DNA from: Heterodontus francisci | Taxonomy: Eukaryota | DNA length: 64,000 nt | NCBI RefSeq assembly: GCF_036365525.1 | Contig: NC_090411.1 | Location: 26,734,819 to 26,798,818 of the forward strand | Reading direction: 5' to 3' | Shown: in pieces, positions 6,640 to 51,377 of the stretch | Layout of the letters: every line of letters begins with the position of its first letter | How positions within the stretch are numbered: position 1 is the first letter of the stretch | Notes under the pieces: generated by a model | What the model was told of the DNA's origin: nothing | Databases searched by the model: none | The model's input: only the letters and a program-made list of their open reading frames with translations | Program-made: the position numbers and the translations under genes

Positions 6640-9600
6640 ATGGATTCTCAGATTTGTCAAAATTATCACCAGGATTGTGAGGCTGCTGTCAACAAGCAGA
6701 TTAATGTGGAACTTACTGCTTCCTATCTTTATCTTTCTTTGGTGAGTGTTGTCTCTGGGTTTATAATAAAATCTATTATGTTGAGGTGAACTCTCTCCCT
6801 TTAACCTAACTTGTCTTATTACTGTTACTGTTTCAACATTTAATCTTGAATTGAGTGTACATGTTAGTGTAGAATGCTTATTCATATTGATTCTGAGGAA
6901 TGCTTCATCAGACTGGAAATTTTAAGAAAACTGGTAATTTCCTCATTTTTTTTTTTACTGGGTTTGGTGATCAATTTGGAGTTAGATGGTTTTGTTCCAC
7001 TTCTACCTGCCTAATCTTCAATTGGGAACAGAAGGCATTTAGTTACAGACCATTCAAAACTTCAAAGGAAGGCAAAAGATATTTTAACGTAACTTCATTA
7101 TTGAGCAGTCAGTTTAATTGGAAGGCAGGAAGACTATTCGGCTCTAACCTTTTTGAGGAGTAAACGGAGGCCAATTGCGTGAATGAAATTTAAATTGTTC
7201 TTTCAGATGTCTTTCTTTGACCGGGATGATGTCGCCCTCAACAACTTCTCCCAGTTCTTCAAACATCATTCCCATGAGAAGCAGGAACATGCGGAGAAGC
7301 TGATGAAATTCCAGAATCAGCGTGGAGGCCGCATCCTCCTACAGGATGTGAAGGTTAGAAATGGCTGCTTTAATGTCAGTGCAATCTTTTTATCCATTGT
7401 CTCTCGAGATAAGGAGGCCCAAAGAAGAAGAAGAAAGAAGAATCTTTTCCATCAATATATCCTTTTCAAAATTTGAAGGGAGTAAAGAATTCCTTTCTTT
7501 AGCTTCACCTGTCCAATCTCATTCCTGGATAATTCTACACACCAATGTCTGTCTTGCTGTGTGGGCTGAGCTACAGCAGAGATACGCTCTGAATACGTTT
7601 TGACTTCCTTGCACACATTAGTTCCATAGCTCTCCCACAAAATAGTGATAGTGGTAGAACCATCAGTTATGGCACAGAAAGAGGCCATACAACCATGTCT
7701 GTGCTGGCAGAAAAAAAAAACTAGCTGCCCAATCTAATCTCTCCTTCCAGAAGCTGGTCTGTAGCTTTGCAGGTTACAGCACTTAAGGTGCAGGTCCAAG
7801 TACCTTTTTTTTAAAAAAAAAAGAGTTGTGGGTTTCTGCCTCCACCACTGATCTGGGCAGGGAATTCCAGACTCCTACCACCCTTTGGGTGAAAAGGTAT
7901 TTCCTCTTATCTCTTCTGATTATTCTACCAAACACCTTAAATCTGTGCCTCTCCACAAGGGAGAAATGGGTCCTTCCTGTCTAATCTATCTAGGCCCATC
8001 AAATTTGATGATCCTGAACTCTCCTTTAGTGCAATTGAGTATAAATAGACAAGTTGAAATAGCTGAACCTTCCAACAGTATAACTGTCTTTTCCCATTTC
8101 AGAAACCAGAGAGGGATGAGTGGAGCAATGGTCTACTGGCAATGCAGGTTGCCCTCAGTCTGGAGAAGAATGTGAACCAGAGTTTGCTGGATCTACACCA
8201 ACTTGCCACCACCTGTACTGACCCTCATGTAAGCTTCTCTTCTTCCTAATTCTGGTCACTAATAAACTAGTGTATTGTTTCGTTTTTTTAAGTGATCAAC
8301 CAGAAATGGACCAGTTTGACTCCAAACAGATTTGTTCTTGTCCATGGATAGCCATTGATTCAAAATTAACATTACATACTACTTAGTTGGTTAAAATCTG
8401 GATTAACTATAGAACTTGATTTCAGCTGTGGCTTTGTTAGCACTCTGCCTGAGTCAAGAGGTTGTGGGGGCAAAAAGCTGAAGTGTTGTACTTCAAAACT
8501 GGACTGTCATACATTGGTTCAGATGAAATGTTCTACACTTGTGAGGAACAAGAGGATGGCCAGAGTGAGGGTAGGGCCGATCAGGGATAGTGGAGGGAAC
8601 TTGTGCCTGGAGTCGGAGGAGGTAGGGGAGGTCCTAAATGAATACTTTGCTTCAGTATTCACGAATGAGAGGGACCTGGTCGTGTGAGGACAGTGTGGAA
8701 CAGGCTGATATGCTCTAACTGGTTGAGGTTAAGAGGGAGGATGTGCTGGAAATTTTGATTGATATGAGGACTGATAAATCCCTGGGGCCAGACAGGATAT
8801 ACCTAAGGATATTACGGGAAGCGAGGGAAGTGATTGCTGCGCCTTTGGCGATTATCTTTGCGTCCTCACTGTCCACTGGAGTAGTACTGGATGATTGGAG
8901 GGTGGCAAATGTTGTTCCCTCTTTCAAGAAAGGGAATGGGGATAACCCTGGGAATTATAGACCAGTCAGTCTTATGTTGGTAGTGGGCAAATTATTGGAG
9001 AGGATTCTGAGACAGGATTTATGATTATTTGGAAAAGCATGGTTTGATTAGAGACAGTCAGCATGGCTTTGTGAGGGGCAGGTCATGCCTCACCAGCCTT
9101 ATTGACTTCTTTGAAGATGTGACAAAACACATTGATGAAGGAAGAGCAGTGGATGTGGTGTATGTGGATTTTAGCAAGGTGTTTGATAAAGTTCCCCATG
9201 GTAGGCTCATTCAGAAAGTCAGGAGGCATGGGATACAAGGAAAGTTGGCTGTCTGGATACAAAATTGGCTGGCCCATAGAAGACAGAGGGTGGTAGTAGA
9301 TGGAAAGTATTCAGCATGGAGCTCGGTGACCAGTGGTGTTCTGCAGGGATCTGTTCTGGGACCTCTGCTCTTTGTGATTTTTATAAGTGACTTGGATGAG
9401 GAAGTGGAAGGCTGGGCTAGCAAGTTTGCCGATGACACGAAGATTGCTGGAGTTGTGGATAGTGTGGAAGGCTGTTGTAGGTTGCAACGGGACATTGACA
9501 GGATGCAGAGCTGGGCTGAGAAGTGGCAGATGGAGTTCAACCTGGAAAAGTGTGAAGTGATTCATTTTGGAAGGTCTAATTTGAATGCAGAATACAGGCT

Positions 9601-11125
9601 TAAAGATGGTATTTTTGGTAGTGTGGAGGAACAGGGGGATCTTGGGGTCCATGTCCATAGATTGCTCAAAGTTGCCACCCAAGTTGATAGGGTTGTTAAG
9701 GCATATGGGGTGTTGGCTTTCATTAACAGGGGGATTGAGTTTAAGAGCCGTGAGGTTATGCTGCAGCTCTATAAGGCCCTGGTTCAACCACACTTGGAAT
9801 ATTGTGTTCAGTTCTGGTCGCCTCATTATAGGAAGGATGTGGAAGCTTTAGAGGGTGCAGAGGAGATTTACCAGGATGCTGCCTGGTCTGGAGGGCGTGT
9901 CTTATGAAGAAAGATTGAGGGAGCTAGGCCTTTTCTCATTGGAGTGAAGAAGGATGAGAGGTGACTTGATAGAGGGGTACAAGATGATGAGAGGCATAGA
10001 TAGTGAATAGCCAGAGACTTTTTCCCAGGGTGGAAAGGGCTATTGCCAGGGGGCAGAATTTTAAGGTGATTGGAGGAAGGTTTTGGGGAGATGTCAGTGG
10101 TAGGTTCTTTACACAGTGGTGGGTGTGTGGAATGCGCTGCCAGCAGTGATAGTGGAAGCAGATACATTAGGGACATTTTAAGTGACTCTTGGATAGGTAC
10201 ATGGATGATAGTAGAATGAAGGGTGGATATTTAGTTTGATCTTAGAATAGGTTAAAAGTTCGGCACAACATCGTGGGCTCAAGGGCGTGTACTGTTCTAT
10301 GTTCAAGGCCCCATCTGAGGTGGATGTAAAAATCACATGGCAATCTGGAAGAACAGGAGTTATCCCAGTGTCCTGACCAGTATCTAATCCACCCACCCAC
10401 CCCACACCACACCACACCATGGTTTCTGGGAGCTTGCTGTGTGCAAATTGGCTGCTGCATCTTATTACAACAGTGACACTTCAAAAGTACTTCATTGGCT
10501 GTGAAGTGTTTTGGGATGTCCTGTGAATGTCAGTTTTGTATAGCATCTTTCACAGCCTCTGGACATTCAAACTGGATAACAACCAATGAAGTACTTTGAA
10601 GTTTCATTTAAAAGCTGCTGTTTGAGTGACCATAACCTGACATAATGCAGCATACCACATCACTTCCTGAAAGCAATCTACCTACTCAAAGCAGGAGTGA
10701 GAATTGGCTGCAGAAAAACTGATCTTCATATTTGGCATCTTGCAACTGTGTATCTACTTCTTTGGCCTCCTTGTCTCTAGACAATGGGTAAGTGCCTGGA
10801 GGTGGTCAGTGGTTTGAGGAGCAGCGCCTGGAGTGGCTATAAAGGCTAATTCTAGAGTGACTGACTCTTCCACAGGTGCTACAGATAAAATTGGTCAGGG
10901 CTGTTACACAGTTGGCTCTCCCCTTGTGCAACTGTGTATATGTAATGAAAAATTTTTCTTCCCTTCCAGCTGTGTGACTTCCTGGAGACTCTCTATTTGG
11001 ATGAGCAGGTGAAGGTGATCAAGCAACTTGGGGACTACATCACCAACCTGAAGCGTCTGGGAGCTCCTGAGAATGGGATGGGAGAGTACCTGTTTGACAA
11101 GCTCTCTCTGGAGGAGAGTAGCTAA
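6640..11125 (+). CDS. Ferritin H/M-type subunit, copy A1 (4 exons, 176 aa, Glu62->Lys)
   Basis: Exons 6640-6741 ([34 protein letters not shown]), 7207-7353 ([49 protein letters not shown]), 8103-8228 ([42 protein letters not shown]), 10970-11125 ([51 protein letters not shown]). All introns are GT-AG, phase 0, at the vertebrate ferritin positions. Colinear with human FTH1. Confidence 0.95.
7391..7440 (+). mobile_element. 50-bp extreme 3' fragment of RTE in intron 2 of A1
   Basis: tatccattgtctctcgagataaggaggccc + (GAA)n, flanked by 8-bp TSD aatctttt (7383-7390, 7441-7448); absent from A2, B1 and B2. Confidence 0.9.
8534..10304 (+). mobile_element. 5'-truncated CR1 LINE in intron 3 of A1 (disrupted RT)
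   Basis: RT fragments at 8743-9024 and 9029-9907 (QHGF, QGSVLGP, FADD); CR1 tail tgttctatgttc; absent from type B. Confidence 0.9.
10754..10926 (-). mobile_element. Older RTE 3' fragment in intron 3 of type A (copy at 36123-36295)
   Basis: Similar to RTE 40575-40755; 13-bp TSD tgcaactgtgtat; empty site in type B at ~23589. Confidence 0.88.
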
Positions 11126-51200: not shown

Positions 51201-51377
51201 TATATTTTTCTTCCCTTCCAGCTGTGTGACTTCCTGGAGACTCACTATTTGGATGAGCAAGTGAAGGTGATCAAGCAACTTGGGGACTACATCACCAACC
51301 TGAAGTGTCTGGGAGCTCCTGAGAATGGGATGGGAGAGTACCTGTTTGACAAGCTCTCTCTAGAGGAGAGTAGCTAA
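48227..51377 (+). CDS. Ferritin H/M-type subunit, copy B2 (4 exons, 176 aa, Glu62->Lys)
   Basis: Exons 48227-48328, 49462-49608, 50266-50391, 51222-51377; GT-AG introns; coding sequence identical to B1 by eye. Confidence 0.95.

Follow-up and report, generated by a model that had tools for sequence, protein, structure and literature searches.

Tandemly amplified shark ferritins with lysine at position 62: a predicted light-chain-like subfamily in Heterodontus francisci

The genome of the shark Heterodontus francisci contains a tandem array of ferritin genes in which the glutamate ligand at position 62 of the ferroxidase site is replaced by lysine. We have studied it from a stretch of 64,000 nt (NC_090411.1, positions 26,734,819–26,798,818), which we call the window; it contains four of these genes, spread over positions 6640–51377. 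Related proteins with the same lysine are found in ten shark genera. On balance, and with limited confidence, we favour the view that they form a shark-wide subfamily which is predicted to lack fast ferroxidase activity, is likely to act as a light-chain-like partner of ferritin subunits with Glu62, and probably arose from the shark array of middle-type ferritins, independently of the light chain of tetrapods.

Each window gene has four exons, introns bounded by GT and AG and an open frame of 176 codons. Two types alternate along the sequence in the order A1, B1, A2, B2 (Table 1): the A and B types differ at 18–20 of 531 coding bases, while B1 and B2 have identical coding sequences. Codon 62 lies in exon 2 and is AAG (Lys) in all four genes, always in the same context of 14 residues, at the four positions where the initial annotation had read it. 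Residues were numbered by alignment to a bat heavy (H) chain and to other named H, middle (M) and light (L) chains. In this alignment the window genes retain E27, Y34, E61, H65, E107 and Q141, together with H118, C130, D131 and E134 of the three-fold channel: the list of conserved residues proposed at the outset is complete. They also carry H57, H60 and L173, and retain E64 besides E61. The predicted fold has five helices (predicted local distance difference test, pLDDT, 88.9), with the four-helix bundle and short C-terminal helix of the ferritin family. It matches H and M ferritins with a template modelling (TM) score of 0.94 and a root mean square deviation of about 1.3, and sequence matches are found in the PDB.

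The comparison with known chains gives a mixed picture. All 13 genes of the array have Lys62, so that the complete ligand set of an H chain is not found, nor is the intact ferroxidase centre with nucleation carboxylates expected of an M chain. Lys62 opposite Glu107 is a feature of L chains, and both residues are present. The further ligands which are lost in L chains, at positions 27, 65 and 141, are kept in the window genes; of the L-chain nucleation glutamates at 57, 60, 61 and 64 they have E61 and E64 but H57 and H60. The substitution E62K with the other ligands mostly kept is also the pattern of FTHL17, which we will consider below. Some residues noticed initially turn out not to be diagnostic: H57 and H60 are the H-chain state, and His57 is also found in 23 of 54 L-type proteins; L173 is present in 29 of 49 proteins of the shark class with Glu62. 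The claim that these subunits are no normal L-type nucleators was overstated, since they keep Glu61 and Glu64, and mitochondrial ferritin is reported to nucleate at His57/Glu61/Glu64, the corresponding site in L being Glu60/Glu61/Glu64 (PMC13411386). Judged from their residues, the Lys62 ferritins are L-like by prediction, and they do not qualify as H or M chains.

The lysine is a constant feature among sharks. Stored proteins of 130–215 amino acids with position 62 aligned were assigned to classes by at least 80% identity to the reference class, with column 62 left out. Lys62 is found in all 89 members of the class thus defined, many of which are near-copies from carpet sharks. The named members come from Heptranchias, Scyliorhinus, Mustelus, Cetorhinus, Carcharodon, Chiloscyllium, Hemiscyllium, Stegostoma, Rhincodon and one more genus, several of them with multiple copies. 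We take these ten genera to cover both major shark groups. Their split is placed at 250 million years ago or earlier (10.1101/2024.09.09.611499). Among the matches listed there is none from rays, chimaeras or sawsharks. In the 89 proteins Glu107 is present in 88, Glu64 in 86, Glu61 in 84 and His65 in 82, with His65 lost in the other 7; at position 141, 55 have Glu and 32 have Gln; at position 60, Gln is found in 70, and His and Glu in 9 each. The 54 L-type proteins, coelacanth included, all have Lys62, with Glu27 in only 10 and His65 in 4. In the shark class with Glu62, this residue is found in 45 of 49 proteins and Lys in one (P0376). The protein of B1 and B2 is identical letter for letter to P0538, a shark entry that bears the public label 'ferritin heavy chain-like', and other public copies are labelled 'middle subunit-like': the genes are annotated in public records, yet unrecognised as Lys62 ferritins.

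The window is the middle of a tandem array of 13 genes on chromosome C41, at 26.667–26.832 Mb, which confirms the tandem amplification that had been suggested. All 13 genes are intact and all have Lys62, every one as AAG; three degenerate relatives are found near the array, at 26.835, 26.367 and 26.375 Mb. A search of the genome (G000) with exon 2 gave 115 matches among 122 candidates. About 5 Mb away on the same chromosome, at 31.65–32.31 Mb, there is a second cluster with 85 four-exon models, a count made without 24 orphan exon matches. A filter for intactness (ATG, GT–AG introns, one stop) is passed by 71 of them, all with Glu62: 68 are of the array type and 3 are divergent single-copy genes. 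The 14 models which fail it have Glu (12) or Arg (2) at index 62, and the two Arg readings probably stem from upstream indels. The H gene is a single copy on C14 with Glu62 and an iron-responsive element; the array genes lie outside the H clade and have no such element. Chromosome C41 carries matches to the TIP49, glycogen synthase, Tub and GFO_IDH_MocA families, members of which, at the family level only, we take to flank human FTL. Because of these matches we place both arrays on the M/L-type chromosome, and the trees described below also assign them to the M/L lineage. The 'H/M-type backbone' of the initial annotation is thus of M/L type and not of H type. The FTL-neighbour families are found 3.7 to 12 Mb from the Lys62 array, none within 3 Mb, and do not discriminate between its possible origins.

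The Lys62 array is under purifying selection. The mean ratio of non-synonymous to synonymous substitution rates (dN/dS) is 0.19 over 78 pairs of its 13 genes, and 0.17 in the 68 genes of the Glu62 array. Spliced transcripts, which had been proposed as a check, are apparent as contigs with the Lys codon in two runs guessed to be RNA. Contigs of three such runs from one sample (X1, X2 and X3) were aligned to B1 and A1. In X1 the exons are covered, the unique parts of the introns are not, and exons 2–3 and 3–4 are joined at GT–AG; the contig over the Lys codon of A1 shows a single, silent difference. One contig of X3 joins exons 1–2 and carries the letters of the first array copy, while X2 has no contig on the A1 exons at 95%. 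There are two intronless retrocopies of the Lys62 type, one on C10 with the Lys codon and one on C6 with exons 3–4 only; their existence points to transcripts in the germline or early embryo. The C10 retrocopy was rejected as the source of the RNA joins, since the X1 and X3 contigs carry array-copy letters and not retrocopy letters.

The upstream regions give information on the origin of the array. Rfam detects no iron-responsive element in the 64-kb window, and a relaxed scan detects none in the 400 bases upstream of any of the 13 Lys62 genes and no near match in 233 kb. Elsewhere in the genome Rfam detects them at the H gene and a single-copy M-type gene, and also upstream of a gene of mitochondrial type; in the second cluster the relaxed scan gives an element in one of 85 models, the single-copy gene. 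The 5' element of L chains is therefore absent from the genomic upstream sequence of the Lys62 genes. It is kept in mammalian L (PMC2603009) and in salmon M (PMC4117605). The 300 bases upstream of the Lys62 genes align with those of all 68 intact Glu62-array genes with scores of 84–156; the scores with single-copy genes are 55–59. The corresponding z values, obtained against a crude two-base block shuffle, are 2.5 to 11 for the Glu62 array and −0.9 to 1.7 for four single-copy genes. The 3' flanks of the two arrays show no similarity. By these alignments the Lys62 and Glu62 arrays have a promoter in common, which is not that of the element-bearing single-copy ferritins.

Trees were calculated with 81 sequences, hand-picked for balance from a total of about 580 stored proteins and gene models, and projected on the B protein. 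Strong support is found for the shark Lys62 clade and for the coelacanth–tetrapod L clade, but not for the backbone. When three long rows are removed, grouping of the Lys62 clade with the Glu62 array is found in 797 and 894 of 1000 bootstraps with column 62 dropped (mixture and LG model, respectively) and in 754 and 925 with the column kept (same order of models). In these four runs, taken in the same sequence, the clade joins L in 22, 21, 221 and 0. The grouping with the Glu62 array is found in four of five runs and that with L in one. The evidence from promoter and element is non-coding and independent of the trees. Measured from B1, an array gene lies at a synonymous distance (dS) of 0.69 and single-copy genes at 1.05 and 2.5; for H the distance is saturated. 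The data are read most simply as the split of a shark M-type gene without the element into a Glu62 and a Lys62 branch. An independent L-like origin, as had been suggested initially, is the better-supported history by trees and promoter. Considering origin alone, we regard independence from the L of tetrapods and coelacanth as likely and orthology with it as rather unlikely.

How the Lys62 subunits may work can be proposed by analogy. The di-iron site uses Glu62 as a ligand, and the double change E62K/H65G destroys activity (PMC6929972); for FTHL17, a review states that E62K suffices for the loss of activity (PMC7760355); in L chains a Lys62–Glu107 salt bridge stabilises the protein and activity is lost (PMC2603009). 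By comparison with these systems, the loss of ferroxidase activity in the Lys62 subunits is likely. Their co-assembly with Glu62 subunits into 24-mers is likely as well. Lys62 would take away the ligand that bridges the two irons and, as in L chains, pair with Glu107, which is retained. On the inner wall the mineral could still be seeded by Glu61, Glu64 and His57, while the channel residues would still admit iron and the Lys62 subunit would stiffen the cage. Co-expression of the two arrays is suggested by their shared promoter: both would be switched on together by transcription, under developmental control and not by iron. In mixed 24-mers iron would be oxidised by a few active subunits, and the Lys62 subunits would contribute stability and mineralisation and keep peroxide lower. 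Bulk iron stocking in the ovary or egg would be the most likely setting; the largest ferritin cluster of the Greenland shark is reported as ovary-specific (10.1101/2024.09.09.611499). We put forward a fuller history tentatively: a light chain invented by sharks, starting from the loss of Glu62 in an active gene of the M-type array ahead of the major shark split; the gene would have been maintained and amplified anew over at least 250 million years, with lineages still gaining L-type residues (Glu141, Glu60, loss of His65), and would form with the active array an iron-independent two-component system, probably for egg stocking.

Several results weigh against the views just presented. When the long rows and column 62 are both kept, the LG model joins the Lys62 clade with L in 717 of 1000 bootstraps and with the array in 274. 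The approximately unbiased (AU) test does not reject the union with L (p = 0.329), and no run reached 95% for the grouping with the array. The residues shared only with L (I8, L37, K62) are as many as those shared only with the array (C9, K22, N109), and gene conversion could account for the shared promoter. Concerning function, the 89 class members largely keep Glu27 (77), Tyr34 (77, with gaps in 10 rows for the former and 6 for the latter) and His65 (82). The ovary report refers to the largest cluster of another species and not to the Lys62 array. Finally, the runs are only guessed to be RNA and come as contigs from a single sample, with a depth that gives no basis for ranking genes or naming a tissue.

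The best of the alternatives makes the shark Lys62 clade orthologous to the L chain of coelacanth and tetrapods, with the same function; L would then come from the jawed-vertebrate ancestor and would have been lost in ray-finned fishes. We consider this unlikely as a whole. Besides the 717 bootstraps and the AU test, it agrees with the 221 of 1000 found in another run, with Lys62 in every L-type protein, with the shared I8 and L37, with an array placed on the FTL-type chromosome and with the absence of any other Lys62 ferritin among scored matches in the genome. It would be rescued by gene conversion of the promoter or by parallel loss of the element. It is opposed by the four tree runs which favour the Glu62 array, by the element-less promoter common with that array when mammalian L and salmon M keep the element, and by the lower dS to it. 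The class moreover has no ray or chimaera member among the matches listed, and E62K recurs easily, as in FTHL17 and in three M-type proteins, P0203, P0270 and P0376, whose Lys62 occurs outside both the L chains and the shark clade. P0203 is grouped with M-type proteins of reptiles, and P0376 is the sevengill protein of the Glu62-array class mentioned above.

A role similar to that of FTHL17 is decidedly improbable: a germline protein forming a ferroxidase-null cage, mainly as a homopolymer or with a regulatory or nuclear function, and not in storage with active subunits. FTHL17 has the same natural E62K as its single key change and retains most other ligands; it is biased to the germline and has been amplified to six genes in mouse (PMC7760355). 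The retrocopies imply germline transcripts also for the shark genes, which have no iron-responsive element upstream. However, the shark genes keep the three-fold channel residues and Glu61/Glu64, they share their promoter with active ferritins, and they have a low dN/dS and short branches, as against the very long branch of a protein presumed to be FTHL17. FTHL17 is mammalian, X-linked, derived from FTH1 and has Asp61; the shark genes have four exons and Glu61, evolve slowly, belong to the M/L lineage and lie outside the H clade.

Slightly less probable still is a modified but not dead site, in which Glu27, His65, Glu107, Gln141 and a flexible Glu61 would hold a slow or single-metal site and oxidation would be tuned. 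Apart from Glu62, no ligand is missing in the window genes, and the clade mostly retains them too; Glu61 is flexible and can point into the active site (PMC13411386). The retention of Glu27, Tyr34 and His65, unlike in true L chains, means that a residual metal site may exist. Against a tuned site stand the position of Glu62 as a di-iron ligand and the reports that E62K abolishes activity (PMC6929972, PMC7760355); His65 and Gln141 are moreover lost in several shark lineages, and slow evolution suffices to explain the retention of ligands. Neutral decay of dead duplicates in an over-amplified family, or copies inflated by the assembly, would fit neighbouring units 99% identical, identical coding sequences in B1 and B2 and degenerate copies flanking the array, and is nevertheless very improbable with 13 of 13 genes intact, a dN/dS of 0.19, spliced transcripts and Lys62 fixed in ten genera; artefact and pseudogenes are rejected on these grounds, even if the exact copy number may be off.

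The expansion of shark ferritins, as such, and natural E62K in FTL and FTHL17 are already known. Expansion and clustering of shark 'FTH1b' or 'FTL/FTH1' genes have been published by Sahm et al. (10.1101/2024.09.09.611499) and Yang et al. (PMC13214024), and the latter describe in the Greenland shark clusters of 55 and 4 copies on one chromosome. The family is the same as here, where we find about 90 and 13 genes, again in one larger and one smaller cluster on a single chromosome, and we infer that the small Greenland shark cluster corresponds to the Lys62 array. In their accessible parts both papers treat the shark copies as functionally H-like and do not consider the ferroxidase ligands; in that of Yang et al., including five supplementary files, 'ferroxidase' and 'Glu62' have no match. 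A literature search with little cover of subscription journals, and without the 2012 phylogeny of vertebrate ferritins to which PMC4117605 refers, gave no description of a shark Lys62 clade.

Compared with FTL of coelacanth and tetrapods, including the 'light chain, oocyte isoform', the shark genes have in common Lys62 with Glu107, Leu173, Leu37, Glu61/Glu64, the M/L-type chromosome and the predicted role of a non-catalytic partner. They differ by keeping Glu27, His65 and, in this genome, Gln141, by His57/His60 in place of Glu, by the lack of an iron-responsive element and by the multi-copy array. The window proteins are 54–67% identical to L-type proteins and 73–75% to those of the shark M array. 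With the M chain of teleosts and amphibians and the Glu62 shark array they share backbone, exon structure and channel residues, and with the latter also the promoter; M keeps Glu62 and is catalytic, and in salmon the M genes retain the iron-responsive element (PMC4117605). Cartilaginous fish ferritins are annotated as H- and M-type, and recent papers tie the expansion of H-like enzyme copies to ferroptosis and longevity. A conserved fraction of copies without a key ligand means that shark copy numbers need to be reread. If convergence is true, a non-catalytic partner subunit has been repeatedly selected in vertebrates, and the shark protein would be a natural one-step intermediate between M and L; if orthology is true, the origin of the L chain moves back to the jawed-vertebrate ancestor. 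The difference of one ligand from an active site would provide a clean test of the contribution of the light chain to the cage.

Table 1. Lys62 ferritin genes and associated features of the window (positions in nt from its first base)
Feature	Position	Strand	Basis or remarks
Gene A1, 176 amino acids	6640..11125; exons 6640-6741, 7207-7353, 8103-8228, 10970-11125	+	Gene model; exon cover and exon 1-2, 2-3 joins in RNA-type contigs
A1 Lys62 codon AAG	7279..7281	+	Read directly; unchanged in X1 contig spanning 7241-7323
A1 upstream region	6340..6639	+	No iron-responsive element; CCAAT-type box 6396, TGATGTCA motif 6494, TATA-like box 6538; homologous to Glu62-array upstream regions
Gene B1	20645..23784; exons 20645-20746, 21881-22027, 22685-22810, 23629-23784	+	Protein identical to public record P0538; exon 2-3, 3-4 joins in X1
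B1 Lys62 codon AAG	21953..21955	+	Read directly
B1 upstream region	20345..20644	+	No iron-responsive element; homologous to Glu62-array promoters
Gene A2	32074..36492; exons 32074-32175, 32642-32788, 33475-33600, 36337-36492	+	Gene model
A2 Lys62 codon AAG	32714..32716	+	Read directly
A2 upstream region	31774..32073	+	A1 motifs present; no iron-responsive element
Gene B2	48227..51377; exons 48227-48328, 49462-49608, 50266-50391, 51222-51377	+	Gene model; coding sequence identical to B1
B2 Lys62 codon AAG	49534..49536	+	Read directly
B2 upstream region	47927..48226	+	No iron-responsive element
Recent duplication of two-gene unit	15199..56324; 15199-28715 vs 42774-56324, 99.35% over 13.5 kb; 1-15203 vs 25430-40574, about 99%	+	Sequence matches within the window
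Upstream flank of next array gene	63575..64000	+	Start codon of next gene about 300 bases past the window end

The boxes and the motif named upstream of A1 are putative elements. Intron 3 of the A-type genes is about 1.9 kb longer than in the B type (window 8530–10300 and the matching part of A2), and the insert, judged by eye, may be a decayed retroelement. Gene conversion as the sole cause of the similarity of A and B exons is unneeded, because their dS of 0.11–0.12 is near the difference of introns and flanks (8–16%), while the non-synonymous distance is 0.015–0.017.

One more position in the first exon is worth mentioning. NCOA4 needs R23 of the human H chain (PMC4592949). The residue at this position (window 6694–6696 and its equivalents) is Lys in 12 of the 13 Lys62 genes and, in the second cluster, in 67 of the 71 intact genes; Arg is found in the H gene and in two single-copy genes. 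The change to Lys is conservative, and to judge from the residue it might alter the ferritinophagy of cages made by the arrays.

The other ferritins of the genome are diverse. About 90 M-type genes with Glu62 are found at 31.65–32.24 Mb of C41 (L051–L110), with a flip in orientation near 31.82 Mb. At the end of this large cluster L118 (32,310,856) is intact and very divergent, with Lys27, Gln65, Gln107, Ser141 and Glu62: from its residues it is a putative second subunit, differently disabled. L112 (32,259,658, minus strand) is an intact single-copy ferritin with lysines at 57, 58 and 61, Gln65 and Tyr173. An intron-containing ferritin at 32.261–32.275 Mb (L113–L114) has an iron-responsive element upstream and groups with the shark and ray proteins P0055, P0080 and P0094; as a guess from sequence, the N-terminal extension of these proteins may be a mitochondrial leader, and in the tree this type is unrelated to mammalian mitochondrial ferritin. 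On C14, at 53.52–53.54 Mb of the minus strand and 6.9 Mb from the H gene, there is a very divergent four-exon ferritin with Glu62 (L132–L134), about 38% identical to the window proteins. It is possibly the shark FTL of Yang et al., though without the lysine of L. A separate true L gene elsewhere in the genome was rejected: searches with L-type queries, in which 150 of 476 and 122 of 122 candidates were scored, led to this ferritin with its Glu62. Intronless retrocopies of the H, Glu62-array and Lys62 types are scattered over C3, C4, C5, C6, C10, C26, C32, C34, C36, C37 and C48. Among the stored proteins P0009, P0152, P0545 and P0548 are ferritins of the cartilaginous fish type filed under bacterial names, probably by contamination.

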